A DNA stretch of 64,000 nt from Nitrospirota bacterium (GCA_021789495.1 JAJYJM010000002.1:26399-90398); one strand, 5' to 3'; numbered from the stretch's first letter, positions 2,086 to 48,505 are shown. The notes: generated from the letters alone by a model not told the origin. Translations and numbers: made by a program.

Positions 2086-5000
2086 ATACCTCCAACCTTC
2101 ATATACTGCCCTTCGGGCCGCAGGCGTGGGAGCGGCGCAGGGAGATATTCGCCGGTATGATCGCAGACCGGGCGACTTGCGGCAAGATGCCTGTTGGTCG
2201 CCCGGATGTCGGCCCCGAAGCCGGTCTGCCGGACTTCCGCGATATTCTCATCCTCGTGCCGAACGAGCGCAAGGCGAAGCCGTTGCTCGCGCTCTTCCTC
2301 GACGCTCTTGAAAAGGCCAGAGTTGGCAGACAAAGCGCCGAAGCAGGGCAGTCCGATGCGGCTCAAGCCGCTGGTCTACCGGCTCGACCGGTCGCCTGCA
2401 TACCGCCCGCGGTAATGGCGCTTAACCGCTTTGTGGAGTCCCGCATCCGGGGCGTGAAGATAATCCATCCAGCCGCAAGAAAGCTCCTGCTGGAGGATAT
2501 TTGCCGTGGGCTGAAAGGGAGCCGCTCAAACGGTCTCGACTTGCCGTGGCTTGAGGACGAGGAACTTGCAAGGTCGCTCTCCGGGCCAATCTCCGAGGCG
2601 CTGGAGAGGATATACCTCAATAACGCCGGGGTGTTGCCTGATGACGGCAATACCCTGCTCCCGGCACCTGCTTATGTAAAAAAAGAATACGAGAAGCGCC
2701 TGCGTAAACTGGGGCTTTCCGACCGGGCGGCTGTCCTGGCAGGTTGGGAGCCGAAGGCGGAGGATTTCGCAGAATACCACGTGGTAATTCTGGACGGATT
2801 TTATGACGCCCTGCCGCACGAACTCAGGCTGATGAAGGCGGCGACCGGTAGACCGGCTTCGACCGTGCTGGGCAGATGCGGCTCCAGCCGCTTTTATTTT
2901 ATACTCGAAGCGCAGGGGCTTATGCTTCCCGAGCTTTCCGCCGAAGGAATGCCGTATGCCGGGACACAGAGGCTTATAAACGAGCTTTTTCCGGGCGAAA
3001 CGGCCTCGTTCTGCGACCAGCGTTCGGAGCAGGACGCCCGGATATTTGCCGGGGCCATATTCCTTGGCAGGCCGATAAGCGAGACGGTGAGACTTCTGAG
3101 GGAGGGAACGGCGGGATGCCGTCTGAAAATAATCTCCACGCTAACGCCGGAGGACGAGGTCGTTTTTATCGCACGCACGATAAAGGAGCGCGCGCTTGAG
3201 GGGCGAATCCGGCTGGACAGGACGCTTATCCTCTTCCCGGAGCCGGAAGCATACGCGCACGCCCTGAAGGAGATCTTCACGGACTACGGCATCCCGTACA
3301 ATTTCGGGGAAGAAAAGCCGCTTATCTCAAGCCCCCCGGCGCAGGCGTTCCTGTCGCTTCTTTCCATACCCGCGGAGGGCTATCCGTTCCGCTTGGTGAG
3401 GCGGGCATTCTATCCGCCTGTAGGGAGCGCGTCTGGCGCGGCGGCGGACTTCGAGTTGTGCGTCCGCGACAGGAGCCGGGCAACCGGTGCGCCGTCCGCC
3501 GGGCGAAGCTTTTGGGAGGCGCTTGCCAGGGAGAAGCGATCCTTTTCGGGAGAGCTTTCGAGGATTCTGGACTGGCTTGGGCCGCTCGACAAAAGGGACG
3601 ATTATCCGGCTGGATGGGCGGAGCTTGCGCTTGGGCTTCTGGACAATACCGGCATGAAAGACTCCCTTGAGCCTCTTGAGAAAACCCTTCCGGAGCTTCG
3701 GGAGGCCCTGAAAAACCTTAACCTGAAGATAGCTCCGGGGCGGTTTATCTCCATGCTGAAAGACGCGATGAACAGGGGCGGGGCCAGGCATACAAGCGAG
3801 TTCCGGGGCGTCCGGGCGCTCGGCAGGCTGGAGGCATTCTCCGAGGGGTTCGAGACAGTCTTTATCGCGGGCATGAATTCAGACATCATGCCGCCCGGCA
3901 CGCGCCAGGATTTATTTTTCGGGACGGCTCCCTGGACGCTGGAAGGCAGGACGCGGGATTCCCGCCTCTTCATGGGACTTCTGCTTGGAGCGAAAGAGGC
4001 GTATCTCTCATACCCGAAAGAAAAAGGCGGGAGGGCCGCGTCGCCTTCGCCCTGGATAATGGCGTTAAGGCCGTTTGTAATCGCGGGGCAGGCGGAAGAA
4101 ATCAACGACTATTCCAGGCCGTCCGAGCCTGAGGCCGCTATGGGCGAGGGCGAGCTTCAGCGGGCCATGGCGATAGGCGGCTGTCAACCTGAGAACGAAG
4201 AGACGCCGCCGGAGGTCTGCTATCCGCCGCAGAAGAGGCGCAGGTTTTCGGCAACCGAGCTGGAGGCTTATATCCGGTGCGGATACAGGTATTGGCACCG
4301 TTATATATTGCGCGACATGCCGCCGGAGGAGCCGGGAGAGGACGAATCTTCGGACATGGCCGGCAGGGTCGTTCACGACATACTGGCGAAATTTTATGCC
4401 GGGCGCAAAGGCCGCTCCGTGAGGCCGGACGAGATGGAGACAGCGCACGCGGAGCTTTCAAGGCTTGCCGGGCGCGAATTTGCCAGGCTGCCGGAAAGTC
4501 TCGCCAACCGGGAGGCGAAACGGAAATTCCTTGAGAAATATGTCCCGCGCGTCCTGGCGGCGGACTCGGAACTCCCCGTCGGAGTCGTTATAGCGGATGT
4601 CGAGAAGAAGGTCGATGCGGAGATCCCCGTAAACGACACGGAGACGGCGGTAATAACCGGGAGGATAGACCGGCTTGAATTAAACGAAAACGGCTCATAC
4701 GCGCTGGTGGACTACAAGACCGGACACTACCCGAACGGAAAGGATATTCCGCTTTCAAAGGAATTCCAGCTCCCGCTCTATGCATATCTCCTCAGGAACT
4801 GCCTGCCGGACAGAAGGCCGTCGTCGTTTGTTTACTACAACCTCGGCAGGGCGGGCGAGACCAGAGACGTCGTATGCTGCGACAGCACAAGATATACCGG
4901 GAAGGCGACAAAAAACAAGAAGAGGAAACGCGAAGACGGTGCGCAGATGGACGAATATGTCAACGGCATAGCCGCGAAAGCAGCCTCCGCCGCGCTGGGG

Positions 5001-5114
5001 ATAATCGAAGGCCGGTTCCCCAAGGCGGACAGCGAAGAGGAGTGCAGGTACTGCGAACTGGCCGACGCCTGCCCCGGCGCGGACGAGAAGGAGCCGGAAG
5101 GGAGCGAGCAATGA
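2082..5114 (+). CDS. addB: AddB/RexB-like ATP-dependent nuclease subunit (PD-(D/E)XK with Fe-S staple)
   Basis: FSATELEAYIRCGYRY, GRIDRLE, LVDYKTG, QLPLY and C-terminal CRYCELADAC. The GTG start overlaps the upstream TGA (GTGA). Confidence 0.8.
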   Translation: MNTSNLHILPFGPQAWERRREIFAGMIADRATCGKMPVGRPDVGPEAGLPDFRDILILVPNERKAKPLLALFLDALEKARVGRQSAEAGQSDAAQAAGLPARPVACIPPAVMALNRFVESRIRGVKIIHPAARKLLLEDICRGLKGSRSNGLDLPWLEDEELARSLSGPISEALERIYLNNAGVLPDDGNTLLPAPAYVKKEYEKRLRKLGLSDRAAVLAGWEPKAEDFAEYHVVILDGFYDALPHELRLMKAATGRPASTVLGRCGSSRFYFILEAQGLMLPELSAEGMPYAGTQRLINELFPGETASFCDQRSEQDARIFAGAIFLGRPISETVRLLREGTAGCRLKIISTLTPEDEVVFIARTIKERALEGRIRLDRTLILFPEPEAYAHALKEIFTDYGIPYNFGEEKPLISSPPAQAFLSLLSIPAEGYPFRLVRRAFYPPVGSASGAAADFELCVRDRSRATGAPSAGRSFWEALAREKRSFSGELSRILDWLGPLDKRDDYPAGWAELALGLLDNTGMKDSLEPLEKTLPELREALKNLNLKIAPGRFISMLKDAMNRGGARHTSEFRGVRALGRLEAFSEGFETVFIAGMNSDIMPPGTRQDLFFGTAPWTLEGRTRDSRLFMGLLLGAKEAYLSYPKEKGGRAASPSPWIMALRPFVIAGQAEEINDYSRPSEPEAAMGEGELQRAMAIGGCQPENEETPPEVCYPPQKRRRFSATELEAYIRCGYRYWHRYILRDMPPEEPGEDESSDMAGRVVHDILAKFYAGRKGRSVRPDEMETAHAELSRLAGREFARLPESLANREAKRKFLEKYVPRVLAADSELPVGVVIADVEKKVDAEIPVNDTETAVITGRIDRLELNENGSYALVDYKTGHYPNGKDIPLSKEFQLPLYAYLLRNCLPDRRPSSFVYYNLGRAGETRDVVCCDSTRYTGKATKNKKRKREDGAQMDEYVNGIAAKAASAALGIIEGRFPKADSEEECRYCELADACPGADEKEPEGSEQ

Positions 5115-8100
5115 GGGTCGAGGGACAGGCGAGGGCGGGAAGACCGAACATATCGGCGCTCCTTACGGCCCCGGCAGGCTCCGGAAAGACGCGCTCTCTC
5201 GTTGGCCGCATAGTGACGCTTTTGTCTTTTGGCGCCCGGCCTTCCGACATTGCCGCCATAACGTTTACGGAAAAGGCCGCAGCCGAGATGAAGGAGCGGC
5301 TTTTCAGAACCTTGAGCGACCCCGCGCTCTGCAAATCCACGGCGAAAGAGGTATTCGAGCTTTCCCCCGAAGACCTGGCCGGACAACCGGCGGCCGGCCC
5401 GGCCCTTACGCTGGAAGAGATTTTCGGGAGTCTTGTCCGGGAGCCGGGCTCGCTCAAGATAGGCACCATCCATTCCTTCCTGCTCGACCTGCTGCGCTCC
5501 TATCCTCTTGAGGCCGGTCTGCCTGCGGACTTTGAAATCCTGCCGGAGACGGGCCTCCTGCTTCGGCGCGACGAGGCGGTGGAGGAGGTCTTGAGGCTCC
5601 TTGAGGGAGGCGCGCGTTCAGACGAGTGCGATATGCTCTACAGGGCCGGGTATGACATAAGAAAGCTCCGTGCCCTTATAGCGCTTTCCCTTGAGAAACG
5701 CGGCCTTATCGCCCATGCACGCAAAGGCTTTGGAGGACTGGGGCAAAATGCGGAAAAGGTCGCCTCTATGCTGCGGGAGGCGATAAATTCCGGGAGCGCG
5801 CAGGCCCTGGCCCGGCAGGCCCTTCGGCTTATTCCGGAGATGCTCGACGGTGAAATCAAGGAATCCCTGAGCGCCCTGTCGAAGCTCCGGGAGCCGGACG
5901 ACCTGCCGGAGATATTCGAGGCCGTAAAGGGATTTTTTTACACGGACAAAGGCTCGCCGCTTGTCAATATTCCGCCCGCGAAGAAGGGGTTCAAGGAAGT
6001 TTACGGCAAAACGGAATGGACGGCAAGGCGGGCAAAGTGGGTGGAAACCTATACCGCGCTTCGGGAATCATTCTCAGAGCCGGCGCGTCTCTATGACTCC
6101 ACCGTCTCGGCTGGGGCGGTGTCCGCATTTCTCTCGCTTGCGCGGCTCTCCGGCGAGGTCTACAGGAAGATGTGCCTGCGGGACGGCTTTATAGACTTCG
6201 AGGACATAGAGATATACGCGCTGAAGCTCCTTGACTCCCGCCCGGACATCCGGCTGCCCCGGCATCTGCTCGTTGACGAGTTCCAGGACACCTCCCGGAT
6301 GCAGTGGGGACTGCTGACAAAAATTGCCGGAGAACAATTTTCCGGCGAAGGGGCCGAGGGCTTGAATTCCCCGACTTTTTTCGCCGTCGGGGACGTAAAC
6401 CAGTCGATATACCGCTTTAGAAAGGCGGAGACGCGGCTGACGAAAGACCTGCGCGCCCTGATGGAAGAACGGATTGCCCCGCAGAAACGGGATTTCCCGG
6501 AGCTTGATATTAATTTCAGGAGCGCGCCTGAGATAATAGAATTTACGGACCAGACATTTATGCCGCTTCTGGGCGGGGACTACAGGGGAGGCCGGGCGGC
6601 AAGGGACTTTGGGGGCAGCGTGAGGCTGAGACTTGCCGAAGATGAGCCGCGCGCCCTTGCGGAGGAGGTTATAAAGGCCCTTCGGCTCGACGTCGAGGTT
6701 GACGGGAAAGTCCGGAAGGCGCGCCTCGGCGACATGGCCGTCCTGGTACAGTCCCGGAGCAGGCTGAAGGATTACGAGCGCGCGCTGAGGCGGTGCGGCA
6801 TACCGTTCCGGGTCCTGGGCGGCACTGGCTTCTTTCGGCAGGACGAGGTTCGGGCGGTCCTTGCCGTCCTGAAGTATCTTGAAAACCCTTCCGACACCTT
6901 CTCGCTCCGCAGGGCCCTTGCGTCCCCCTTTTTCGGTATTCCGGAGGGGAGCATACCGCCGTTTGCGGGTAAAGACCCCATTGCCTGGCTTGCAGAGTCG
7001 GGCCAGGCCGATGCTGCGGGGCTTTTCGTGAATTGGCGCGAGGCGGCAGGGAACGTGCCGTTTCCTGAGCTGGTGGACTGCATAACAAACTTCGCTCGAA
7101 GCCGGTCTGCCGGCCAGGCGGTTTTCAACATCGAGAGACTCTCAAGGCTCGCGCGCGATTTCGGCCAGTATACAGGTTCGGCAGGCGGCGGCCTGCACGA
7201 CTTCATGGAGTGGGTGCGGGATTATCGAAAGGGCGGGGATTTGCCTTCCGAGGACATGCGCAAGGGCGGGGACGAAGGCGCCAACTACCTGACAATACTC
7301 ACAATTCATTCGGCGAAGGGACTTGAGTTCCCGGTGGTCTTTCTGCCGGGGATGGGCGCGTATACCAGGAGCGATAACGGAAGTGTCTTGTTCGGCCAGC
7401 CTGGAGACGACATACCGCTCGCCATGCGGACGGAATCGCTCTTTGAGGAGAACGGGGATTACCAGGCGCTAAAAGAACTGGAGGCCGTCGAGAGGGCCAA
7501 AGAGAAGGCACGACTCTTTTACGTCGCGGTCACGAGGGCGCGGGACCACCTTATAATGCTCTCCGGCAGCCGGGCGACCAGCTTCGGACAAGGCCGGTCT
7601 TTTCGTCCTGAAAGTTTCGCCGGAATGCTCCTTTACGCTTCGCCCGAATGCCTGTTCGGGCAGGGATTTTCTGCGGACGTTACTGAATACGACTATCCGG
7701 AAGCGCGTTTTTCCGGCACTTCCCCCGACTACCTCGACTCTTTCACCCCGGCTGTAGAAGGCGGGGAGACCCGGCATAAAATGCCGCCGCCGGAGCGTGT
7801 TGCCCCCCTGCCGGATTGTCCGGGCGTCGGCAGCCTGGCGACCGGACGATTCATATCGCCCAGCTCCCTTGCCGACAGCGCACTTTTAAAAGATGCCGGG
7901 CGCTCCGAAGGCTCGGCGGCTGTCGGAAGTCTTGTGCACGAGGCCCTGGAATCCTACGGGAAAACAGGCGGTTATAATATCAGGACATTGCCGTCGTTTG
8001 GCCGGTCGTCCGGAGATGAGGCCGCCGAGGCGGATAAAATACTGGCTAATTTGCTGTCCCTGCCGCATGTAAAAGAGATATTCTCCGCCCCCGGCTACTA

Positions 8101-23740: not shown

Positions 23741-23758
23741 GGGACTATTTATACCTCC

Positions 23759-23790: not shown

Positions 23791-23837
23791 TTCAAGGACG
23801 CGGACGTGCGCGCCCCATTCTGCCCTGGTTGCTCTCC

Positions 23838-24032
23838 AAATGCCTGCGAGGTTAGCTGCCGGGCTCAGGCTTGGCAGTGCCTTATCCCCTGAGGCGCCCG
23901 ATAAATCAGGCGTCGCAAGAAGAATTCGCCCCGTGAATCCCTGGTTCCCCCGCACCCATTGGCAGGCTTAAGTCACCGAAGGCAAAGTATGACTCGCCGC
24001 CGGTCTACCGGCCCCGCCCGGGTTTAGGCCGC
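23838..24032 (-). ncRNA. c-di-AMP (ydaO/yuaA) riboswitch
   Basis: The minus strand reads GCCUAAACCC...GGGUGCGGGGGAACC...GGGGCGAAU...CCUGAGCCCGGCAGCUAACCUCGCAGGC, matching the ydaO core segments. It lies upstream of a KimA-like gene. Confidence 0.88.
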
Positions 24033-25885: not shown

Positions 25886-26798
25886 TTATCTTTCGGAATT
25901 TCTTGACTATATGCGCTACGAGAAAGGCGCCTCCGGGAATACGCTCGTCGGCTACGGGAACGATATCAGGCAGTTCGCGGAATATCTGAAAGGGCCGGGC
26001 GAGCCGGTTGACCGGCGTCGGGCCGAGCCGGACTTGCTGAAGGCGGATAACCTCGACATCCGGGGGTTCCTGGCGCACCTGGTGAAGCGCGGAATAAAAA
26101 AATCTTCCGCGCAGAGAAAGGTTGCATCGATAAGAAGCCTGTATCGCTACCTGTTCAGGGAAGGTCTTGTCGAGAAGAATCCGGCGAAACTTGTCGCTAC
26201 GCCGAAGAGAGAAAAATCCCAGCCGATTGCCCTCTCGGTGGACGACGCGGTGATGCTGGTGGAGGCGCCGGGCGGCGACAAACTGGAAGGCCTGCGGGAC
26301 AGGGCAATACTTGAAGTCTTTTACTCGGCGGGCATCCGCATATCGGAGCTTGCGGGCCTTGACCGCGAGCAGGCAGACCTGACTCAGGGGCTGGCAAAGG
26401 TAACGGGAAAGGGGAACAAGGAGCGGTTCGTGCCGCTTGGCAGGAAGGCGGTGGAGGCCATATTGGATTATATCGCTGCGGCGAATTCGGCGAAAAAGAC
26501 CCCGGCGCATTCCCCATGTCCGATGTTCCTGAACAACAGGGGTGAAAGGTTAAGCGTCCGGAGTATTCGCCGCGTGGTTATGAAATACGTGCGCGAGAAA
26601 CGTATTCCTGGAAACGTGTCCCCGCATACGCTAAGGCATACCTTCGCCACGCACCTTTTGGGAGCGGGCGCGGACCTGCGGTCGATACAGGAGATGCTCG
26701 GACACGTCTCGCTCTCCACGACGCAGAAGTATACGCACCTGGACATGGAAAGGCTCATGGAGGTCTACGACAAGGCCCATCCCAGGGCGAAAGGATAG
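25878..26798 (+). CDS. xerC: Tyrosine recombinase XerC
   Basis: RDRAILE...[27 protein letters not shown] and [11 protein letters not shown]. Located between trmFO and hslV. Confidence 0.92.
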
Positions 26799-27334: not shown

Positions 27335-27336
27335 AA

Positions 27337-28722
27337 ATGCGGGAGCTTACACCCAGGGAAGTAGTCGCCGAGCTGGATAAATATATAATCGGCCAGAATA
27401 ACGCTAAACGCGCCGTGGCCGTCGCGCTTCGGACGAGATGGCGCAGGCAGCGCCTGCCGGAGGAACTGAGAGACGAGGTGGTGCCGAAAAATATTATAAT
27501 GATAGGCTCCACGGGGGTCGGAAAGACCGAGATTGCCAGGCGACTGGCGAAGCTTGTGGACGCGCCTTTTGTAAAGGTGGAGGCCTCGAAGTTCACGGAG
27601 GTCGGCTATGTCGGGCGGGATGTCGAATCCATCGTCCGGGACATCACGGAGCAGTCCGTCGCGATGGTGCGCTCCGAGCATTCGGAGGCAGTCATGGAGC
27701 GTGCGCGCGCCGCGGCTGAGGAGCGGGTGCTTGACGCGCTCCTGCCGAGACGCAGGGGACCGGTAGACCGGATACAGGCACATGAGCAACCGGAGGAAGA
27801 GCCTGTGGACTGGATGCACGAGAGCTACGAGGCCGAAAGTCCGACCAGGGAGAAATTCCGGAAGATGTTAAGAGGCGGCAAGCTCGATGACCGCACCGTC
27901 GAACTTGAGGTCAGGGAGAAAGGCGGGATGCCGCTCGGAGTCATCTCCAACATCGGAATGGAGGAACTGGAGATAAGCCTTAAGGAGATGATGGGGAACA
28001 TGTTCCCTGAGAAGACAAAGAGAAGAAGCCTTAAGGTCCCGGAGGCGATGAAGGTCCTGACGCAGGAGGAGGCGTCCAAGCTCATAGACATGGACAAGGT
28101 GGCGAGAGAGGCCATATCGCGCGTGGAGCAGTCGGGCATCGTTTTCGTGGACGAGATAGACAAGGTGGCCGGCAGAGAATCGGGAGGAGGAGGCGGGCCG
28201 GACGTATCGCGTGAAGGCGTGCAGAGAGACCTGCTCCCGATAATCGAAGGCTCGACGGTCAACACGAAGCATGGGCCGGTGCATACGGACCATATCCTGT
28301 TCATCGCAGCCGGAGCGTTCCATGTGGCGAAGCCCTCGGACCTCATCCCGGAGCTCCAGGGCCGTTTCCCCATACGCGTGGAGCTGGACAACCTGACGGA
28401 AGGCGATTTCGTGAGGATACTCACCGAGCCGAAAAACGCCCTGATACGCCAGTATGTCGGGCTTCTCGGCACGGAGGGGCTGGACGTGGAGTTCATGGAC
28501 GACGCCATACGCGAGATTGCGAGGATTGCGGCGTCCGTCAACAGCCGCACCGAGAATATCGGGGCGAGACGTTTGTATACCGTGATGGAGAGGCTCCTCG
28601 AAGAGGTGAGCTTCCACGCCCCCGACGCGGTGCAGAAGAATATCAGGGTGAACGCGGAATATGTGCGGAAGCAGTTAATCGACATTACCAAAGACGAGGA
28701 CTTGAGCAGGTTCATCTTATAA
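27337..28722 (+). CDS. hslU: ATP-dependent protease ATPase subunit
   Basis: [33 protein letters not shown] and DLSRFIL. Confidence 0.97.
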
Positions 28723-28736
28723 TTCGCGAGGGCGTT

Positions 28737-29633: not shown

Positions 29634-29657
29634 CAAGCACCGTCATTTGGAGGGTCA

Positions 29658-30419: not shown

Positions 30420-30436
30420 AAAATTCCCCTCTTTCC

Positions 30437-30465
30437 TTGACAGATTGCCCCCGCCCGGTTATACT
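30437..30465 (+). promoter_or_regulatory. sigma70 promoter upstream of yqeY-mutS2
   Basis: TTGACA-N17-TATACT. Confidence 0.65.
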
Positions 30466-30542
30466 TCAACCCCAAACTCGTAATGCCATGCCACCCCGTA
30501 AGGCTGTTTTCCGTGAATATTCAAGACCATCGCGAGGCTAAA

Positions 30543-30989
30543 ATGACCCTGAAAGAGAGATTGAACTCGGATATGAAGGAGGCGCTCAAGGCCCACGACG
30601 CAGCCCGGCTCTCCGCAATAAGGATGATTATCTCCGCCTACAGGAACAAGGAGATAGATTCGCGCAAAGACTTAGACGACGAAGGGATGCTCTCTGTGCT
30701 CTCCACGGCGGCGAAGCAGCGCCGGGAGTCCATAGAGCAGTACGGGAAGGCCGGGCGGAAGGACCTGGTGGACAAGGAGACAGCGGAGCTAGAGGTCATC
30801 CAGTCCTACATGCCAAAACAAATGAGCAAGGAGGAGATAGAGGCGCTGGTAAAGGAAGCGGTTGCCGAGTCCGGGGCGAAGGGGCCTTCCGATATGGGCA
30901 AGGCAATGAAGATACTTATGCCGAAGGTCAAGGGCCGCGCGGACGGAAAGCTTGTTAATGAGCTTGTGAAGGTGGCCTTGGGCGGCTGA
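30543..30989 (+). CDS. GatB/YqeY domain protein
   Basis: MTLKERLNSDMKEALK, KQRRESIEQY and DMGKAM...GRADGK. Confidence 0.93.
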   Translation: MTLKERLNSDMKEALKAHDAARLSAIRMIISAYRNKEIDSRKDLDDEGMLSVLSTAAKQRRESIEQYGKAGRKDLVDKETAELEVIQSYMPKQMSKEEIEALVKEAVAESGAKGPSDMGKAMKILMPKVKGRADGKLVNELVKVALGG

Positions 30990-33361: not shown

Positions 33362-33398
33362 TAGATTCGGTCACTATAATTTTAACCCGGAGAGTATT

Positions 33399-34394: not shown

Positions 34395-34430
34395 TCCCTC
34401 TCGCAAGCCCTTTAATTTTCATTGATTTTG

Positions 34431-34448
34431 TTATACTATATAGTATAA
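34431..34448. promoter_or_regulatory. Perfect 18-bp palindrome overlapping the probable dnaG promoter
   Basis: TTATACTATATAGTATAA lies just downstream of TTGATT (34422) and overlaps a -10-like TAAAAT. Confidence 0.4.
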
Positions 34449-34481
34449 AATAGTTAGTTCACGCTTTTATAAGGCAGTGAT

Positions 34482-36347
34482 TTGAACGGCTTAATAACGG
34501 ATGAGGCGTTAGAGCGGGTGCGTTCCGCGACGGACATCGTCGAGCTTGTCTCCCAGCACGTCTCGCTGAAGAAGAGCGGCGCGAACTACCTGGGCCTGTG
34601 CCCGTTCCACCAGGAGAAGACGCCGTCGTTCACCGTAAGCCCGTCCAAGCAGATATTCCACTGCTTCGGATGCGGGGCGGGCGGGGACGCCGTCGGCTTC
34701 GTTATGCGCCAGGGAAACTACTCCTTCCCGGACGCGGTGCAATTCCTGGCCGACAGAGCGGGTATAGAGCTTCCTGAGCGGACAGCCGGAAGCCGGTCTG
34801 CCGGCGAGGATTGGGATAAATTAATCGCCGCGAACGAGGCGGCGGCGAAATTCTACCAGGAGCGGCTCTGGAATTCGCCGGACGGGGAAAAGGCGGTAAA
34901 ATACCTCGAAGGACGCAGCATGCCGGAAGACGCGGCAAAGGGCTTTGAGCTGGGTTACTCCTCGGTCTCGTGGGACGCGCTTCTGACCCATTTAAAGGCC
35001 GGGGGACACGATTCCCGCATAATCGAAAAAGCGGGTCTTGCGATAAAAAAGACTGATGGGACGGGCAGTTACGACCGATTCCGCGACAGACTGATGTTCC
35101 CCATAAGAGACGTCAAGGGAAGGTGCATCGGTTTCGGCGGAAGGGCTTTAAAAAACGAGGAGTTACCAAAATATCTAAACTCTCCGGAGACGCCGCTGTT
35201 CAAAAAGGGCGAAACGCTCTATGGTATTGATTTTGCAAAGGAAGAAATACGCAAGAAGGACTACGCGGTAATCGTCGAAGGCTACATGGACGCCATCGCC
35301 TGCCACAGGGCGGGAATAACGAATGCGACGGCGACCTTGGGAACGGCGCTAACCACTGGACATTTAAGGCTTTTATCGCGCTTCAGCAGGAACGTATTAT
35401 TGGTCTTCGACGCCGACGAAGCGGGCCGGAAGGCGGCAGCGCGCTCCCTGGAAGTTTTCCTGTCCTTTGGCCCCAAAATGGCCGCGAAAGTCGCGCTCTT
35501 GCCCCAGGGAGACGACCCGGACAGCCTCCTTGCGCGAGAAGGCCCCGATGCCCTCAAGGAAGCATTTAAAGGGCGCGAAAAGCTTCTCGAATTTGTAATC
35601 AAACGGGAGGCATCCGCCGTCTCCGATATAGACGGGAAAATCAAGGCCGCAGGGACAATTACCGGTATACTCGCGCGTCTGGACGATGCGGTCGAGAGAA
35701 GCCATTACCTGAAGATGGCCGCATCCGAGCTTGGAGTCGAGGAGTCGGCATTAAAAGAAGAACTGGAGAAAAAGATTAACGGCGGCGCAAAGACCGGGGT
35801 TTATCGTTCCGGGGTCGCCAATAAAAAACTGGCCCCTATGGATAAAATCGAAGCGGGGCTTATCCAGGCAGCGCTTAAAGACCCTGAGGCGGCACTGTAC
35901 GCGGCGGATAATTTGGTGCCGGATGATTTTTCGGACGAGAGGCTGAAAAAAATAGCCGAAGCTCTTTTCCGAATGGCCCTCGGAGGGGACTCGGTTTTAG
36001 TCCCGAAGCTCTTGGACGCGCTCCCGGACGAGGACATGAAGCGGACGGCGTTGGAGCTGTCATTAAAAGAGTTCGAGAAAGCCCACTATGGCAAGATGGA
36101 AGATCCTGAGAGCTTCGTGAAGGGGGCAGTCGGCACGTTAACGGAGTCCCGTTATAAGAGGGTAGTTGAGGAGGTGAATGCCCTCCTTGAGAAGGCAAAC
36201 GCCTTAGGCGAGCCGGTGGCGGTAAAGGAGTTGTCCGACTTCCGGATGAAGATGATGAAGGCTTTATCAGGCAAGGACTTTGAGCTTTTAAATAAACTGC
36301 AGAAGGAGTTAACCGAATGGCAAAAGAAGAGAAGCTGGACGAAGTAA
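34482..36347 (+). CDS. dnaG: DNA primase
   Basis: [15 protein letters not shown] zinc finger, [13 protein letters not shown] and DADEAG. TTG start. Confidence 0.97.
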
Positions 36348-38146
36348 AACAGTTAATCAGCGTCGGGAAGGAAAAGGGCTACCTGACCTACGACGATTTG
36401 AATAACGTTCTGCCGCCCGAAATTTCGTCCTCCGAGCAGATAGAGAATATAATGAACATCTTCGGGGACATGGACATCGAGGTTATCGATTCCGGGCAGG
36501 AGGAGCGCTACGCCCGGATAATCGAGGCGGAAGAGGAGGAAGAAACTGCAAAAACCCGCACCTACGCCGACCTCGATTTCGAGGAAGAGGGCGAGGAGGA
36601 AGAGGAGGAAGAAGCCCTCGACTTAACCCCCGGCGCCATAGGCAAGACGGACGACCCGGTGCGTATGTATCTCCGGGAGATGGGGACGGTATCCCTTCTT
36701 TCCCGCGAGGGCGAGATAGTCATCGCAAAGCGCATCGAGGACGGCCAGAGGGAAATTGCCAAGGTCATGTACAGCATGCCCGCCGCGCTCAAAGAGCTTG
36801 TCTTGCTTGGCGACAAGCTCAAGAGAGGCCGCCTGGGCGTCCGGGACATCGTGCATACATACGAGGAGGAGTTCGAGGAGATAGAGGAGATAAACGAGGA
36901 AGAGTTAAAGGAGAAGACGATAACCCTTCTTGACGATGCGACCGCCCTCTACGAAAGGCTTATCCCTCAGCTCATCGAGCTTAAAAAGCCGAACCTCTCC
37001 GAATCGAAGCAGAAGAGGCTTAAAGGCTCTGTCCGCCAGATAAAGAAGGAGCTTTCCGAGAAGCTCGATATGGTAAACCTGCACCCCAGGCAGGTGGAGC
37101 TTGTCGCGCAGAAGCTAAGAGATTATGCCTGGACGGTTATGGAGGCCGAGAAGGACATAAGGGCGTGCGCAAGGCGCGCCGGCGTAACCATCGATGAACT
37201 GCACAATATATTTCTGAAGCCCCGCCCGGAAAAGGGGAAGGTTAAAGTCCCGAAGAAGGTGAGGCTGACCCCCGACCAGTTCCTTGAACTGGAGAAGTCC
37301 TATGAGAACGCGAAGAAAAAACTGGAGCGCGTGCAGACGGAGACGCTTGTTGCTCCGGACGAGCTTCGGGCCGCGGTATCGTCGCTCGACAAGGGCGAGT
37401 TCAACATGAAGACAGCGAAGACGGAGCTTGTAGAGGCGAACCTCCGGCTTGTGGTTTCGATAGCGAAAAAATACACGAACAGGGGCCTTCAGTTCCTTGA
37501 CTTAATCCAGGAAGGCAATATCGGCCTGATGAAGGCGGTGGACAAGTTCGAGTATAAACGCGGCTACAAGTTCTCGACGTATGCGACGTGGTGGATACGC
37601 CAGGCTATTACGCGCGCCATAGCAGACCAGGCGCGCACCATACGCATACCTGTGCATATGATTGAGACTATCAACAAGCTTATCCGCACATCGCGGCATC
37701 TTGTGCAGGAGCTCGGACGCGAGCCGTCCCCCGAGGAAATAGCAAACGAGATGGGACTGCCGCTTGAGAAAGTCCGCAAGGTTCTGAAGATAGCGAAGGA
37801 ACCCATCTCGCTTGAGACGCCCATAGGCGAGGAAGAAGATTCCCACTTGGGCGATTTCATCGAGGACAAGCGCTCCCCGTCGCCGCTTGAGTCCGCTATA
37901 AACTACGACCTCTCCGAGCAGGTGCGCAGGGTGCTCCAGACCCTTACTCCAAGGGAGGAAAAGGTGCTTCGTAGAAGGTTCGGCATAGGCGAGGCCGCAG
38001 ACCATACATTGGAAGAGGTCGGGCAGGAGTTCGACGTAACCAGGGAGCGCATACGCCAGATTGAGGCGAAGGCCCTGCGCAAGCTTCGACATCCGTCCAG
38101 GAGCAAGAGACTTAAGAGCTTCGCGGAAGGCGGCGGCGGGGCGTAA
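36317..38146 (+). CDS. rpoD: RNA polymerase primary sigma factor
   Basis: [35 protein letters not shown] and RERIRQIE. Confidence 0.98.
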
Positions 38147-38174
38147 AATTTAAAATTACAGGAGGCAATTTCTT

Positions 38175-39530
38175 TTGGCTGACGTAATACCTTTTCGAGG
38201 ACTAAGATACAGCGAGTTGGCCGGGCTTTCCAGGCTTGTTGCGCCGCCTTACGACATAATATCGCCGCAGTACAGGCACGAGCTCTACGCCCGCGACCCG
38301 CACAATGTCGTCCGGGTAGATTTCGGGATGCCGGAAGAGGGCGACTCGGAAAGCAACAACCAGTACACGCGCGCGGCAAAGAGCCTCAAGAGGTGGCTTG
38401 GAGACGGGGTCTTGAAACGCGAGGAAAAGCCCGCGCTCTACCTCTACGAAATTGAATATGAAACCCCGCGGGGCGAGAAAAAATCCATGCGCGGCTTTAT
38501 ATGCCTGCTTAAGCTCGAAGAGTGGGACAAGGGAGTCGTCCTTCCGCATGAAGGGACGCTCAAAGGCCCCAAGGCTGACCGCTTCGAACTTCTGAAGGCC
38601 GCCTCGGCCTCCGCAAGCCAGGTCTTCGCGCTGTATTCCGACCCGGAAAAGAAGATCTCAAGGCTGCTTGCATCGGCTGTCCGCTCTGATGCCGGTCTAC
38701 CGGTAGAGGCAATCGACGACGACGGTTCAAGACACATGTTGCGGGCCGTTACGGACGCAGAGGTTATGGAGTCTATACGGAAGGCAATGGCGGACAAGAA
38801 AATTTTCATAGCCGACGGACACCACCGCTACGAGACCGCGCTTGCATACCGCGACTACAGAAGGACCGAGGCCGGGGCATGGAGAGGGGACGAAGGATTT
38901 AATTTTTTCCCTGTGTTCCTGTCCAATATGGACGAGGACGGCCTTACCATACTTCCCACTCACAGGCTGATTCTCGATGCGGGAAATCTGACGCTGGACG
39001 ACGTGCTGGAACGCTCGTCACGCTATTTCAAGGTAAAGAGGTTTCCTTTTCTTCCGGAAAACGAGGACGAGGCCCGCTCGGAGTTCCTGCGGTCGCTTGC
39101 CGAGGCCGGGGATGATTCCCATGGGCCCGGTAAACCGGTTTTCGGTTTCTGCTGGGACAGCGCCCCATGCTATTATATCCTTATATTGAAGGACATGAAT
39201 GCCGTGTCGAGGCTGCACGGGCAACGCCATTCCGAGACCTACTGCAATCTCGACGTTACGATCCTGCATTCGCTTATCGTGGAGAACGTGCTTGGAATAG
39301 ACACGGAAAAGATTTCGTCTTCCCGGCCCGTGCAGTTCGAAAAGGACGGTGAAAGGGCGATTGACCGGGTAATCTCCGGAGAATTCGCGATGTGCTTTCT
39401 TTTGAATCCGACAAAGGTCAGGGAGGTGAAAGAAGTCGCCCTGGCTAGGGAGATAATGCCTCAGAAATCGACATACTTTTATCCGAAGCTTTTGACCGGC
39501 CTGGTTATAGCGGACTTGAACCAAATATAA
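38175..39530 (+). CDS. DUF1015-family protein
   Basis: PFRG, APPYD, LPHE.T, IADGHHRYETA and MPQKSTYFYPKL. Confidence 0.9.
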   Translation: MADVIPFRGLRYSELAGLSRLVAPPYDIISPQYRHELYARDPHNVVRVDFGMPEEGDSESNNQYTRAAKSLKRWLGDGVLKREEKPALYLYEIEYETPRGEKKSMRGFICLLKLEEWDKGVVLPHEGTLKGPKADRFELLKAASASASQVFALYSDPEKKISRLLASAVRSDAGLPVEAIDDDGSRHMLRAVTDAEVMESIRKAMADKKIFIADGHHRYETALAYRDYRRTEAGAWRGDEGFNFFPVFLSNMDEDGLTILPTHRLILDAGNLTLDDVLERSSRYFKVKRFPFLPENEDEARSEFLRSLAEAGDDSHGPGKPVFGFCWDSAPCYYILILKDMNAVSRLHGQRHSETYCNLDVTILHSLIVENVLGIDTEKISSSRPVQFEKDGERAIDRVISGEFAMCFLLNPTKVREVKEVALAREIMPQKSTYFYPKLLTGLVIADLNQI

Positions 39531-39577
39531 AGGCCGTTGAAACGAGCGAATCATCGGGCAGCGAGTTCAACGGCCTT
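39530..39577. terminator. Inverted repeat (12-bp stem), possible terminator or processing stem
   Basis: AAGGCCGTTGAA ... TTCAACGGCCTT. Confidence 0.4.
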
Positions 39578-39593
39578 AAATTAGGTATTTAAT

Positions 39594-40103
39594 ATGCCGC
39601 GACAGTTTATACCCGTCGGCGAAATCTTAAAGGACGTCCTTAAGTCGCGCGGCCTGGGAAGCGGGGATTTGCTTTTCCGGATACAGCGCAACTGGGCATC
39701 GGCGGTAGGGGAAAAGATTGCTCAGCACGCCTGCCCGCACATGCTCAGGGACGGCAGACTCACCATATCCGTTGACAGCCCCGCCTGGATGTCCGAGCTT
39801 TCAATGCTTTCCCCGCAGATTATCGAAAAAATAAATTCCGGATTAAACGATGGGGCGACCGGCAACAGAGGGAATCCGCCCGGCGACGCTGTGCGAGAGC
39901 TGAAATTCCGCCTGGCCGGGCGACCGGCGGCAGATAAAGCCGACAGGCCGGCTTCCGGGGAAAACGCGCCTCCCATAAAAAAACGGGCGCTTACCCTCGA
40001 TGAGAAAACCGCCGTGGAGGCCGCCACGGCCAATATTCAAGACGGCGAGCTTCGCCTCCAGGCCGAGAGAATGCTGTCGAATTCATGCGGGAGGGAAAGA
40101 TAA
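39594..40103 (+). CDS. DUF721/DciA-family protein
   Basis: W..AVG..IAQH..P....G.L.I.V.SPAWMSEL...IIEKIN. Confidence 0.82.
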   Translation: MPRQFIPVGEILKDVLKSRGLGSGDLLFRIQRNWASAVGEKIAQHACPHMLRDGRLTISVDSPAWMSELSMLSPQIIEKINSGLNDGATGNRGNPPGDAVRELKFRLAGRPAADKADRPASGENAPPIKKRALTLDEKTAVEAATANIQDGELRLQAERMLSNSCGRER

Positions 40104-40790
40104 TTGGCCTGCGACTGCAAAAACTGCATAGTAAGAAGCCTGACGATTTTCTCGGACCTCGGCATGGGCGAGCTTGAGAAGGTAGGCTCCCTGATATACC
40201 TCAAGACCTTCCGCCGCAAGAAAGTCATATTCATCGAAGACACGCCGAGCCAGACTGTATACGTGATTCGCTCCGGCACCGTAAAGTGTTATAAGTCGCT
40301 TGCGGATGGACGTGAGCTTATAATCAGCGTCCTGGCCGCCGGAGACATGCTGGGGTTCGATTCCCTCTACGAAAACCACTACTCCAACACCGCCGAGGCC
40401 ATACAGGATACGGAACTCTGCTGTATCCGCAAAAAAGACCTGGTGGATCTGCTCCGGAAAAGCCCCGAAGTCGGAGTCCGGTTTATCAAAAAAATGAACA
40501 AGGAACTCCAGAACGCACAGGAGCGCATCCGGGACCTGGGCCTGAAGGATGCCCGCGAGCGTGTGGCGACGCTCCTTATGACGCTTTTCATCTCTCGCGG
40601 GGAGGGGCGGGGGCCGAAGTTCACGCTCTCCAGGCAGGAGATTTCCGAGATGGCCGGAGTCGCCCAGGAGACGGTGATAAGGATACTTTCCGAGTTCAAG
40701 GCCGACGGGCTGATTACCTCCGAGGGTAGGAATATAATGGTGTTAAAGCCGGAAGATCTCAAGAGGACAGCGGGGATTTTCGAGATATGA
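40104..40790 (+). CDS. Crp/Fnr-family regulator with N-terminal Cys cluster
   Basis: N-terminal CDCKNC, cNMP-like beta barrel, and HTH LSRQEISEMAGVAQETVIR. TTG start immediately after the upstream stop. Confidence 0.9.
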   Translation: MACDCKNCIVRSLTIFSDLGMGELEKVGSLIYLKTFRRKKVIFIEDTPSQTVYVIRSGTVKCYKSLADGRELIISVLAAGDMLGFDSLYENHYSNTAEAIQDTELCCIRKKDLVDLLRKSPEVGVRFIKKMNKELQNAQERIRDLGLKDARERVATLLMTLFISRGEGRGPKFTLSRQEISEMAGVAQETVIRILSEFKADGLITSEGRNIMVLKPEDLKRTAGIFEI

Positions 40791-42103
40791 AAGATTTGCG
40801 AATCTGTGCCCGGCATACAACAATTTTTCTCACTGCAATGGTGGTATTTTCGTTAGCGGCGCCGACCTTTGCCCAGCCCCTGAAAAACCCGCAGGACGAT
40901 GCAGACGCGCGGTATCGCATGGGACTTGACCTCATTAAAAAGGCCGATTACGCCCGCGCGCTTCACGAGCTGTCGATTACGGCCAGTCTTAAAAAAGGGG
41001 ACGACAAGGGAGAGGCGCGGGTCTATGACGCCGAGGGGATTGCTTATTACAAACAGGGCCTGAACATCGAGGCGCAGGGCGAGTTCGGCAAGGCCCTTTC
41101 AAAGGCCCCGGGCGATATAGACGCGCTGTATTATATCGGACTTATAAACTACAAGGTAAACGGCTACACAGCCGCCTCCCGGTATTTTAACGAAATAATC
41201 GCAGCCGGGGGAAAAGACGCGAAGGTGAGGGATTCGCTATTCAGGAAGTTTTTCAATCTGGGCATTGACTTCCAGAACCGAGGCAAGTCCAGTTCGGCGG
41301 CGGAGATGTTCGGAGAGGCGCTGGGCCTGAAGCCGGACGACCCGAAGACGCATTTCTACCGGGGACAGGACTATATGGCGCTTGAACGGTACGGTGACGC
41401 GGTCTCGGAGTTCAGGAAGGCGCTTGCATTGAAGCCTGATTCTACAAAGACAAAGGCGCAGCTTGAGGCATCGAAGAAACTGGCCGCAGAAGATGCCGTG
41501 AAAGATGCTAAAAGCGTCTTGGGCAAGGGCGAATATTACTCCGCGCTGAAGTTTTATAAACAGGCGGCGTCTTACGACCCGTCCAACGCGGATGCAAAAA
41601 AGGGAACGGCGAAAAGTTCGTCGCTGCTCGCTGCCAGGACGCGCGAGGAGTGTTCAAAAGTAAAGGCGCTGATCGAAAAGGGAGACTTTGCTGACGCGAA
41701 GGACGCGCTTGCGGCGTTAAAGAAACAGAACCCGGACTCGGACGAGGCGAAGTCATTATCTGTGGAGCTTGCCGCAAAATCCGCGCAGGCGATTAACGAT
41801 CTGTTTTCAAAGGCAAAAAAGGCCGAGGACGCCGAGGCCCTTTCAAGGGCGGAGGAATTCTATTTCAGAATACTTTTGATTGAGCCTTCAAACAAAAAAG
41901 CGGCGAATAACGAGCGGCTCATGAGCGGAAAGATAAGCGATGAGTGGAAAAAGGCGAAGGCGGCTGAGGCGGAAGGGAACCTTGCGCTGGCGGAGAAACG
42001 CCTCGAAAAGCTGGCCGTATATACGCCGGACGACCCGGTGGTAAAGGTCGATCTGAAAAGAATCATGTCCGGGATCCGGGACAAACAAAGCCATAAGCGG
42101 TAG
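40787..42103 (+). CDS. Exported tetratricopeptide-repeat protein
   Basis: Signal peptide (…APTFA) and multiple TPR-like units. Confidence 0.8.
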   Translation: MKDLRICARHTTIFLTAMVVFSLAAPTFAQPLKNPQDDADARYRMGLDLIKKADYARALHELSITASLKKGDDKGEARVYDAEGIAYYKQGLNIEAQGEFGKALSKAPGDIDALYYIGLINYKVNGYTAASRYFNEIIAAGGKDAKVRDSLFRKFFNLGIDFQNRGKSSSAAEMFGEALGLKPDDPKTHFYRGQDYMALERYGDAVSEFRKALALKPDSTKTKAQLEASKKLAAEDAVKDAKSVLGKGEYYSALKFYKQAASYDPSNADAKKGTAKSSSLLAARTREECSKVKALIEKGDFADAKDALAALKKQNPDSDEAKSLSVELAAKSAQAINDLFSKAKKAEDAEALSRAEEFYFRILLIEPSNKKAANNERLMSGKISDEWKKAKAAEAEGNLALAEKRLEKLAVYTPDDPVVKVDLKRIMSGIRDKQSHKR

Positions 42104-44072: not shown

Positions 44073-44646
44073 CAGGTTTTTATGTGACTTCAGCGAGAAG
44101 CTGATACTATACCACTACGGAGAGCTCTCAAGAGAGCAGGCCTCCGAGGTCGCCGCGCATGTGCTTTCCTGCGCCCCCTGCCGGAAGGAGCTCGACGACA
44201 TTTCCTTTGCGCTCTCCAGCGTTCCGGGGCCGGTAACCCCAACCTCCGGCGAGAGTTATGCCGCCGCCAAGGGCGTTATGCGCAGACTTTTCCGAAAGCC
44301 GTCCGCATTCAGGAAGTTCGTCCCCGTCTACATCACCGCCGCGGCAGCGATAGCCGCCGTATTGATAGCATTGTATCTGCCCGGTTTTAATACAACAAAA
44401 CAGCCGATGCAGGCCCAGGCGGTCAAGGCCCCTGCGCCGGTAGACTGGGAAGTCCTGAATAATATCGACGTAATAGACGACCTCGACGTCATACACCAGA
44501 TAGACCAGAGCGGTCTGGACGAACTGGGGCCGATAAGGGAATCGCGGCACAGTGCCGGTGCAAGGATGGCCGACAAGGGGCCTGTCAAGGCGGGAATCAG
44601 CGCGGACGGCGGGCGTCCGGAGATTGCCGAGGCTAACGGGGGCTGA
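44065..44646 (+). CDS. Zinc-finger (HxxxCxxC) transmembrane anti-sigma factor
   Basis: HVLSCAPC and a single TM helix. Overlaps the sigma stop. Confidence 0.85.
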   Translation: MDDRFLCDFSEKLILYHYGELSREQASEVAAHVLSCAPCRKELDDISFALSSVPGPVTPTSGESYAAAKGVMRRLFRKPSAFRKFVPVYITAAAAIAAVLIALYLPGFNTTKQPMQAQAVKAPAPVDWEVLNNIDVIDDLDVIHQIDQSGLDELGPIRESRHSAGARMADKGPVKAGISADGGRPEIAEANGG

Positions 44647-47434: not shown

Positions 47435-47515
47435 AAGGGGGGGGTGATGCGGTTCGGAACAGGCCGCGCAGGGTGCTCGAGTGGACAATGCCCCTGCAAC
47501 GCGGGCGACCTGGCG

Positions 47516-48505
47516 TTATAAGAGTTTTTCCGCCGCGAGGGCGGCGAGGAAGTCTATGAAGGCGGGATCGTCGTCCAGACTCTTCGTCCTTTCGTATTTC
47601 ATGCCGAGCGATGAGGCGAGGGACTTCTGGAGGACGTCGCAGTCGTAGAGCGTCTCGACGTTTTCGGCGACGAAGCTTATGGGCACGATCAGGACTCCGC
47701 GCGCGCCGGAGGCGGCTGCGGCCTTTATCTCCTCGTCCGTCTCAGGCTTCAGCCATTCCATGCCCGTACGCCCTTTGCTCTGGAAACCGACGTGCGTCCG
47801 TATCTCCCCAAGCTCTTCCTGGAGCATCGAGGCGGTGCAGAGGACATGATCTAAGTACGGGTCTCCTCTGCTTATCAGCTCCTCCGGGAGGCTGTGCGCG
47901 GAGAATATCACGGACAGCACCGGCAGACCGGCCTCGGGGCCGCCGGCACCGGGTTCCGGCGTGGTCTCAGTAAGCCTCTTCAGCGCGTCGTGCATCCTTC
48001 CCGACAGAAGCGCCGTGAACCGGGGATCGGCTCCGAATCCTTCGTAATAGACAATCTCCGGCGGGTTTGGGTCTTTTTCCGCCAGGGCCTTTAAGGCGCC
48101 GAAGCCGGAGCCGGTTATCGCGGGCGAGAAGTGCGGGTATAGCGGAATGGCCAACAACTTTCCAATGCCGTCCCCTTTTATTTTCCGGTAAGTATCCCGT
48201 ATGGAGGGCATTGTATACCTGTTGGCGTGGTATACGGAGACGTCCCTGTCCTTCAGCGCCGTCCGAAGCGCGGCGGCCTGTCTTTCGGTAATCGCGTCCA
48301 TTGGAGAGCCGCCGCCGATAGCCTGGTATTTCTCCTTCACCGGCTCCTTTCGCATCGTGGCGACATACAGCGCGAGCAGGGGGCGTATCGGCCCCGGTGC
48401 CGGAAGGATATGCGGGTCCATGAAGAGCTTCATCAGGTACGGGAACACCCCCCGCACGTCGGACGGGTCTCCCATGGTCATAAGAAGGACGGCTTTGTTA
48501 TTCAT
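47516..48505 (-). CDS. hemH: Ferrochelatase (possibly coproporphyrin-type)
   Basis: LLMTMGDP, Y.AIGGGSP, PLYPHFS, FSAHSLP, GDPY, FQS...WLKP and ETLYD. Confidence 0.93.
   Translation of the reverse strand: MNNKAVLLMTMGDPSDVRGVFPYLMKLFMDPHILPAPGPIRPLLALYVATMRKEPVKEKYQAIGGGSPMDAITERQAAALRTALKDRDVSVYHANRYTMPSIRDTYRKIKGDGIGKLLAIPLYPHFSPAITGSGFGALKALAEKDPNPPEIVYYEGFGADPRFTALLSGRMHDALKRLTETTPEPGAGGPEAGLPVLSVIFSAHSLPEELISRGDPYLDHVLCTASMLQEELGEIRTHVGFQSKGRTGMEWLKPETDEEIKAAAASGARGVLIVPISFVAENVETLYDCDVLQKSLASSLGMKYERTKSLDDDPAFIDFLAALAAEKLL

Follow-up and report, generated by a model that had tools for sequence, protein, structure and literature searches.

A repeat of about 18 nucleotides, probably REP-like, inserted in protein loops of a Nitrospirota genus

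Introduction

The DNA uptake sequences (DUS) of Neisseria, the uptake signal sequences (USS) of the Pasteurellaceae and the octamer-scale HIP1 palindrome of cyanobacteria occur at least about once per kb and arise by point substitution under drive. The small dispersed repeats (SDRs) of Nostoc and its relatives, reportedly described by Elhai et al. in 2008, are said to be hairpin-capable sequences of 21-27 nt that appear as insertions at orthologous loci, that are not mainly intragenic and whose enzyme is not known. Repetitive extragenic palindromic sequences (REPs) are presented by Di Nocera et al. 2013 (PMC3733652) as short stem-loops of 20-40 bp with a GTAG or CGTC tag, mainly extragenic with a minority of intragenic copies, the CGTC-tagged members of which 'apparently lack a dedicated transposase'. 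For the Rickettsia palindromic elements (RPEs), PMC10969869 gives a length of about 150 bp and 44 insertions in R. conorii. The present work deals with a dispersed palindromic motif found in a stretch of 64,000 nucleotides of a Nitrospirota bacterium (GCA_021789495.1 JAJYJM010000002.1:26399-90398), hereafter called the window. An earlier note, made from the sequence alone, had described this motif as a 16-nt quasi-palindrome embedded in coding loops and had offered two readings of it, an uptake-sequence or HIP1-like signal and a REP-derived coding invader.

Species-specific copies of the motif originate as insertions of a unit of about 18 nt (six codons). The copies occupy loops, linkers and termini of otherwise conserved proteins, which tolerate them, and the repeat is restricted to one lineage, in which it turns over. 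The motif is probably the core of a very small, oriented and insertion-propagated repeat of the REP type, tolerated in protein loops.

Results

Over-representation of the motif

The window is part of contig C17 (positions 26399-90398) of the genome G000, which comprises 2.077 Mb in 53 contigs with 55.8% GC; G-numbers designate the genomes of a 41-genome comparison set, and C-numbers designate contigs. The genomes compared are all drafts, broken into 10 to 270 contigs, and appear to be metagenome bins. The 16-mer GAAGCCGGTCTRCCGG has four exact copies in the window, at the positions already noted (2217-2232, 7098-7113 and 34789-34804 on the plus strand, 2845-2860 on the minus strand), against no match in all 100 dinucleotide shuffles. 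With up to two mismatches there are 12 matches, including those at 38688, 47920, 23996, 26004, 27760, 39940 and 55992, where the shuffles give 0.12 on average and 2 at most. When read back, 16 of the 16 coordinate ranges of the earlier note hold the sequence it assigned to them, and 2210-2232 is indeed identical to the reverse complement of 47913-47935 at 22 of 23 nt, GPEAGLP being encoded by both.

At the scale of the genome, the exact 16-mer is present in 23 copies and the core GCCGGTNNACCGGC in 95, against 0.4 and 0.8 for order-3 and order-5 Markov models (10 simulations each). Within the called open reading frames (ORFs), 83 copies of the core are found; over 20 replicates each, a synonymous-codon shuffle that leaves the protein intact gives 2.25 (maximum 4) and a permutation of the codons gives 0.15. 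The excess is thus far above both the Markov and the codon-preserving expectation, and these results therefore place it in the DNA and not in the peptide or the codon usage. The use of three frames and both orientations, together with the survival of the excess after codon shuffling, bears out the proposal that the motif is propagated as DNA.

Insertion of an 18-nucleotide unit

The genome G000 was compared by tblastn with G002, which belongs to the same genus; the comparison covered 1.08 of the about 2.1 Mb of G002 and involved 73 G000 sites and 51 G002 sites, a copy being considered as present with at most one mismatch and as absent with at least four. Among the 35 present/absent cases, the side carrying the motif is the longer one in 30, with a mode of exactly 18 nt (10 cases), other differences of 6-48 nt and five zero or negative values. 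Where the motif is kept in both genomes, the length difference is zero in 30 of 75 sites and the rest scatter symmetrically. The nucleotide alignments of the two genomes display clean 18-nt gaps. In the comparison with the closer G004 (0.26 Mb), the motif side is longer in 12 of 15 species-specific cases, 4 of them by exactly 18 nt.

Single-gene cases make the polarity of the event clear. In MnmA, the hexapeptide VKPVDR, located between GLNYSS and PGGRSYV, is found in only two of 19 aligned genomes, G000 and G004; the 17 that lack it belong to the genus, the family and the phylum, and 12 further matches with partial or broken frames were left out of this alignment. The xerC copy is an 18-nt indel, filled in G000 and G002 and empty in G003 and G005. 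AddB has received insertions at four or five separate spots, one of which, SRSTGL, occurs in G000, G002 and G003 but in neither G004 nor G005, a pattern suggestive of a precise loss or of gains in parallel. In RsmD, both stretches encoded by the element are gaps with respect to the solved homologue PDB 3p9n. The copies therefore map to indels in orthologue alignments, a check that had been suggested beforehand, and whole-unit insertion in coding loops fits the earlier idea of a REP-derived coding invader.

Structure of the repeated unit

In the k-mer tables, the true core is the 12-nt palindrome CCGG-T-NN-A-CCGG, of which 128 copies occur in 2.08 Mb with the centres CG (46), AG/CT (53) and TG/CA (15). 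The complete unit is not a 16-nt quasi-palindrome: it is oriented and 18-19 nt long, with the consensus C-Y-G-A-R-G / CCGG-T-C-K-A-CCGG / C, where the first hexamer is a tag and C is the usual last base, and only its 12-14 nt core is palindromic, the 14-nt core being a perfect palindrome. When 213 sites were oriented by their flank hexamer, the centre not being used for orienting, the information content spanned positions -6 to +12 and fell to background level beyond. The consensus hexamer (CCGAAG, CCGAGG, CTGAAG, CCGCCG and others) is found on one side only of each site, and the 213 tags end with GAAG (66), GAGG (41), GCCG (29) or GACG, the reverse complement of CGTC (14), among others. The oriented centres are TCGA (60), TCTA (56), TCAA (17) and TCTG (13) against TAGA (10), TTGA (7) and CAGA (3); TCTA is opposed to TAGA by 56 against 10 (p=7e-9) and TCTG to CAGA by 13 against 3. 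The centre being asymmetric relative to the tag, the element is therefore oriented. No linkage was detected between tag and centre variants (chi-square p=0.12).

The final 14 nt, taken as single-stranded DNA, give a hairpin with 5 bp in the stem and 4 nt in the loop (-5.4 kcal/mol). A longer hairpin stem was sought by flank covariation and rejected, complementarity at flank positions 1-12 being at or below the shuffled expectation everywhere but at the first flank pair, which slightly exceeds it (0.72 vs 0.67, z 2.9). The TCGA form can be read through in all six frames (PKPVDR, RSRSTG, EAGRP, AGRPAS, PVDRLR, RSTGF); in the TCTA form and in the TCAA form one frame is closed.

A longer parent element or a MITE (a miniature transposable element with inverted repeats) was likewise rejected, no longer repeat being found around the copies: similarity extends past about 40-56 nt only between loci with tandem copies. 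Eight of the 19 same-orientation neighbour pairs are spaced by exactly 18 nt and form direct tandems, while the 13 opposite-orientation pairs within 300 nt have spacings of 21-233 nt with none preferred, and hence form no fixed inverted doublets. As a separate observation, the addB and ferrochelatase copies have seven further bases in common upstream of the tag (CGGCCCC GARG...), which extends their likeness to 23 nt, past the 18-19 nt unit.

Distribution and turnover among relatives

The core is present in 95, 35, 56, 52 and 92 copies in the five genomes of the genus and in 10-16 copies in each of the sister genus's three genomes; of the other 33 of the 41 genomes searched, 32 contain 0-4 copies and G009, of the same family, contains 6. 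The reversed pattern, used as a control, gives 0-1 within the genus. A scan of named genomes with 20-mers gave 53 scattered loci; the Synergistaceae/Synergistales, with six of them in MAG records, were considered as the repeat-rich lineage and dismissed, these genomes containing 1-3 core copies. One metagenome scan yielded no relatives of the AddB.

Between G000 and G002, 41 copies are shared and 20 are specific; about 56-66% of the mapped copies are shared and 27-30% are species-specific. Between G000 and G004, 20 are shared and 10 specific. The same oriented consensus is obtained in the three species examined (G000, G002 and G004), with centres that differ between them: TCTA in 14 of 31 copies of G004, TCGA and TCTA about equally in G000, and a mixture with more TCTG and TCAA in G002. 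This is the pattern expected from families copied from different source variants. The kept copies are no better conserved than their flanks (identity 0.87 vs 0.88, n=12 pairs), the centre being the most variable part. A younger age of the TCGA copies appears as a trend only (14 of 35 specific vs 16 of 74 shared, p=0.065).

Genomic location and host genes

About 90% of the copies lie inside ORFs, whether the sites are defined as a 14-mer with at most one mismatch (179 of 199) or as the oriented unit (195 of 213), and the intergenic share does not exceed the non-coding fraction of 11.6% (p=0.2-0.6). The 179 ORF copies are distributed over the three frames as 84/55/40, and the copies sense and antisense to the host gene number 75 and 58 (p=0.17). 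An internal control is provided by a second repeat of G000, CGTCATTCCCGCGAAAGCGGGAAYCCAG, an ATTCCC-N8-GGGAA hairpin with a CGTC tag that looks like a classical CGTC-tagged REP; its 16-mers number about 35-37 on both strands (e.g. C1:30863, C9:4102 and C42:21111), and none lies in the window. It is intergenic in 16 of 16 plus-strand regular-expression matches; the ORF caller therefore discriminates, and it is the 18-mer in particular that resides in coding sequence.

The copies are clustered, occupying 147 host genes against 181.3±3.5 expected from gene length. Annotation covered 23 hosts, three of them in the window and the other 20 drawn from the 35 multi-copy hosts; among them are the DNA-maintenance proteins PriA (5 copies), Mfd (3), a DinG-like helicase (3), AddA and AddB, and the remaining 18 are unrelated enzymes. 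The leaning toward DNA-maintenance genes proposed in the earlier note is suggestive. Other multi-copy hosts are fused NuoBCD, NuoG, CobQ, TrpE, MoeA, RsmB, an E2 acyltransferase, NrdD, TatC, MnmA, HflX and CusB.

Two loci deserve a separate description. The 826-aa ORF at G000:C8:23659-26139 (minus strand) is a NuoB-C-D fusion of the 20-kDa, 30-kDa and 49-kDa NADH dehydrogenase domains and contains three copies. At G000:C22:5545-5736, three to four whole or partial copies in both orientations are grouped in an intergenic stretch of 340 nt, flanked by an aminotransferase gene and an unnamed ORF, the densest non-coding cluster noticed. A REPtron-like arrangement was considered there and abandoned, the genes alongside being of the serA/serC type, Fur and FeoB.

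Candidate mobilising functions

The REP-associated tyrosine transposase (RAYT), IS200, reverse transcriptase, DDE and TnpB families were all examined as mobilisers and rejected, no family tracking the distribution of the repeat. RAYT occurs in G006 and G007, both without the repeat, and exceeds its cut-off only in the former; G001 contains an IS200 TnpA only. The single IS200-family transposase gene of G000 (NF033573, 113.7 bits) runs from C13:35771-36228 on to C49:1-130 and breaks the assembly; it adjoins a likely integrase-type gene, and its right-end hairpin CCCGGCTCTGCCGGG bears a faint likeness to the TCTG form of the element.

Three other features of the genome were recorded. [quoted passage not shown] Several palindromes of four or six bases are strongly avoided in G000, with observed/expected ratios of 0.09 for CTAG, 0.13 for CGGCCG, 0.19 for GTCGAC, 0.21 for CTGCAG, 0.24 for CCCGGG and 0.29 for GATC, and 62 of the 144 GTCGAC sites lie within GGTCGACC, the context given by the TCGA centre of the element. 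An N6/N4 DNA methylase gene occupies the left edge of the window (1-576, minus strand).

Copies in the window

The copies of the window are collected in Table 1. Pfam supports the gene names given in the earlier note: an AddB-like PD-(D/E)XK nuclease, an AddA-like UvrD helicase plus nuclease, a XerC/D-type integrase, an HslU-type AAA protein, DnaG, DUF1015, DciA, ferrochelatase and glucose-6-phosphate dehydrogenase (G6PD). Its statement that the copies fall in linkers and insertions also holds, as exemplified by DnaG.

Table 1. Complete and degenerate copies of the element in the 64,000-nt window
Positions	Strand	Copy	Remarks
655..673	+	Degenerate copy, CTGGAG-CCGGTCGACTGG-C	Outside ORF calls
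2215..2233	+	Copy in addB-like gene, CCGAAG-CCGGTCTGCCGG-A, encodes PEAGLP	Variable N-terminal loop, hypervariable among orthologues
2368..2383	+	Degenerate copy in addB-like gene, GCTGGTCTACCGGC	Within 12-21 aa missing in G003, G005, G008
2844..2862	-	Copy in addB-like gene, tag TCGAAG, centre TCTA, encodes TGRPAS	9-11 aa missing in G002, G003, G005, G008
5510..5525	+	Two-mismatch copy in addA-like gene, GAGGCCGGTCTGCCTG	
7096..7114	+	Copy in addA-like gene, TCGAAG-CCGGTCTGCCGG-C, frame RSRSAG	
23994..24012	+	Intergenic copy, TCGCCG-CCGGTCTACCGG-C	Partly decayed but kept in G004, G002, G003
26003..26021	-	Copy in xerC/D-type integrase gene, CCGACG-CCGGTCAACCGG-C	Clean 18-nt indel
27759..27777	-	Copy in hslU, between two AAA segments (I-domain region)	Also in G004
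34787..34805	+	Copy in dnaG, frame GSRSAG	Linker, Zn-ribbon (aa 6-100) to catalytic core (aa 124-252)
38686..38704	+	Copy in DUF1015 gene, CTGATG-CCGGTCTACCGG-T	G002: two overlapping copies
39915..39955	-	Two degenerate copies, DciA C-terminal tail	39916-39927 CCGGGCGACCGG; 39940-39955, reverse complement GAAGCCGGCCTGTCGG
44437..44448	-	Degenerate core CCGGTAGACTGG in zf-HC2 protein gene	
47919..47937	-	Copy in ferrochelatase gene, CCGAGG-CCGGTCTGCCGG-T, encodes GPEAGLP	Matches addB copy at 22/23 nt
55990..56008	+	Copy in G6PD gene, CCGAAC-CCGGTCGACCGG-C	aa 9-14, ahead of first Pfam domain (from aa 42)

The dnaG, hslU, DUF1015 and dciA copies lie within stretches that are hypervariable among five relatives. 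The dnaG copy is present in G004, decayed in G002 and absent from G003, and the sister genus is 6 nt shorter at this place. In the region of the hslU copy, other sequence is found instead in G002, G003, G005 and G010, and the DUF1015 site has no copy in G003, G004, G005 and G010. In the region 27756-27853 of the window, a contig of run X2 (depth 177, near the main depth) skips 96 nt from the hslU copy onward, which points to the coexistence of another strain or species whose HslU I-domain insert is different. The intergenic copy stands 10 nt from a c-di-AMP (ydaO/yuaA) riboswitch (window 23827-23984, minus strand; 62.4 bits, gathering score 38), itself located upstream of an amino-acid permease gene.

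Discussion

The element is akin to the REPs in being a stem-loop with a tag at one end, in reaching a high copy number in some lineages with none in close relatives, and, with regard to the CGTC REPs, in the lack of a dedicated transposase among our findings. It resembles the intragenic REPs by its repair-gene hosts (here PriA, Mfd, the DinG-like helicase, AddA, AddB, DnaG and XerC). It departs from the REPs in its tag, which is GARG and not GTAG or CGTC, in its unit of 18-19 nt instead of 20-40 bp, and in the fact that about 90% of its copies are intragenic. Unlike REPIN-RAYT systems, the genus has no RAYT over cut-off, and single copies or 18-nt direct tandems take the place of fixed inverted doublets. 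The absence of a target-site duplication (TSD) and of a longer repeat, in a genome with only two rve genes and one IS200 gene, sets the element apart from MITEs, and the lack of a fixed target and of a strand bias sets it apart from IS200/IS605-type mini-elements. Like the RPEs, it is a palindromic repeat inserted in frame into unrelated genes with an added peptide tolerated by the fold; it differs from them in having an 18-nt unit in about 200 copies instead of about 150 bp in 44. The SDRs, nearest in size, are likewise very short hairpin-capable repeats seen as insertions; they belong to another phylum and have another sequence, and our unit is shorter, a multiple of three, and has open frames. 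With DUS/USS and HIP1 the element has in common that it is a short, lineage-specific and over-represented word inside genes, in several frames. Its density is about one per 10 kb and its origin is an 18-nt insertion, which distinguishes it from DUS/USS; in comparison with HIP1, there are 128 12-nt cores in 2.08 Mb, and no other palindromic k-mer dominates the k-mer tables. In the literature covered we found no description of an 18-nt, mainly intragenic repeat; the intragenic-REP list of PMC3733652 lies outside this coverage and may hold closer precedents.

The model we favour considers the motif as a REP-like repeat propagated by insertion, which would behave as selfish DNA. A trans-acting nuclease or transposase would recognise the tag plus the hairpin on single-stranded DNA. 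The repeat being frame-neutral and stop-free and encoding small or polar residues (EAGRP, RSTG, PVDR), it would be removed by selection only from constrained positions and would accumulate in permissive loops. The sharp information edges, the one-sided tag, the oriented centres and the exact 18-nt mode argue for a faithfully copied unit. Mobilisation by an enzyme, as for a REP, is our best guess for the mechanism and a tentative one; we rank it first, enzyme-free template switching being nearly as likely.

A series of observations weighs against this model. No TSD of 2, 3, 4 or 6 nt was detected (44 matches vs 36.5±4.9 expected) and no target base is conserved beyond positions -6 to +12, two absences that fit no standard transposition chemistry. 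The orientation of the copies with respect to the G-rich strand is unbiased (80/64, p=0.21), unlike that of IS200/IS605-type elements. The inferred insertion boundaries scatter by about ±3 nt between diverged species, and the indels on either side of the mode measure anything from 12 to 48 nt. Together with the missing TSD, target consensus and strand bias, this argues against textbook transposition. Contigs of four runs of one study, labelled mine drainage metagenome, show no 18-nt polymorphism at six sites of window 22000-41999; no current activity was seen in this check, whose power is low since contigs drop rare variants. The ORFs come from a crude caller of our own (1822 ORFs, 88% coding). 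As to the enzyme, where absence means that it was not found in draft contigs, the RAYT that the earlier note proposed to look for (NF047646) is not over cut-off in the five genomes of the genus (G003 reaches 74 bits for a cut-off of 80), and none was found in G002 (96% complete), in G004 or in the sister genus. G000 has a single Y1 transposase, an ordinary IS200 TnpA located where a contig ends, and no Y1/IS200 transposase was found in G002, G004 and the sister genus. RVT_1 was not found in the repeat-rich genomes of the family, and in G000 two rve genes are present, with no DDE_Tnp_1 and no TnpB found.

The scattered ends, the size spread and the missing TSD leave room for microhomology-guided template switching, a possibility to which we give somewhat less credit. 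The GC-rich palindrome would stall or break replication, and the end would switch, by a microhomology of a few bases (CCGG, CGG, GCC), to another copy, copy about one unit and return, so that the spread of the repeat would be a repair by-product requiring no transposase. Such an enzyme-free templated insertion would accommodate the lack of a TSD, of a target consensus and of a dedicated enzyme, the sliding boundaries and the indels of 12, 15, 18, 21, 24, 30, 33 and up to 48 nt, as well as the clustering of the copies and their 18-nt tandem arrays. In several filled/empty pairs, moreover, part of the unit is already at the target junction: the MnmA target GC completes the core, the xerC target has GAGCCGGAC, and C17:121119 has GGCCGCA on both sides. 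However, microhomologies of the CCGG type are common at 56% GC and only about 10-14 cases are clean; the sharp edges and the one-sided tag denote a defined unit, the asymmetry of the oriented centres implies the faithful copying of distinct oriented source variants, and microhomology by itself would hardly yield a mode of exactly 18 nt.

A functional DNA signal, either an uptake sequence or the palindromic site of a chromosome-organising or regulatory protein whose coding location would be incidental, seems improbable to us. The perfectly palindromic 14-nt core would suit a dimeric binder and the motif is common to all five species of the genus, but a symmetric binding site leaves the one-sided tag and the orientation unexplained. 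The distribution of the AddB SRSTGL insertion, found in G000, G002 and G003 and not in G004, goes against the identity ranking and could reflect interspecies exchange. Against a functional signal, 20-30% of the copies turn over between sister species, and conservation is no higher in the kept copies than in the flanking sequence. The uptake-sequence or HIP1-like reading of the earlier note does not agree with a density of about one per 10 kb, roughly tenfold under that of DUS/USS, nor with copies that begin as 18-nt insertions and not as point-mutational convergence. The competence genes expected under it, ComEC, DprA and three secretins, are present, but these families are found in control genomes as well (secretin in 6, ComEC in 10 and DprA in 11 of 14) and are hence uninformative. 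As for chance, codon bias, peptide selection, or an artefact of assembly or of synthetic linkers, the assemblies are indeed drafts and the core CCGGTCGACCGG looks like a synthetic SalI linker. This explanation is already refuted by the excess over the Markov models (95 vs 0.4-0.8) and over the protein-preserving shuffle (83 vs 2.25), by the use of three frames and both orientations, and by copies that stand inside contigs and not at their ends, and that occupy orthologous positions, with substitutions, in independently assembled species.

In conclusion, the interest of the REP-like repeat described here lies in its extreme smallness, in a design that is frame-neutral and free of stops, and in its residence inside genes while no mobilising enzyme could be recognised. 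We know of no smaller insertion-propagated bacterial repeat, the SDRs measuring 21-27 nt. A wider proposal, which we consider doubtful enough to be worded with caution, is that it might be the smallest insertion-propagated bacterial repeat, suited to genes by its six codons, six open frames and loop-friendly residues, and spread without a recognisable enzyme by an undescribed hairpin- or microhomology-guided copying; it might then keep supplying loop insertions of six residues, conspicuous in large helicases and nucleases of DNA repair and replication such as PriA, Mfd, AddAB and DnaG. The unit being small and the insertions clean, this chemistry is open to oligonucleotide and reporter-gene tests. 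The repeat also sharpens the question of how tagged palindromic repeats without a cognate transposase multiply, which PMC3733652 already raises for the CGTC REPs. On the practical side, such repeats create indels in marker genes, which can lead to errors in alignments, in orthology assignment and in the strain typing of metagenome bins. If the favoured reading holds, the lower size limit of insertion-propagated bacterial repeats is extended, the repeat has coding sequence and not intergenic space as its habitat, and the short loop insertions of conserved proteins gain a concrete origin that can be dated.

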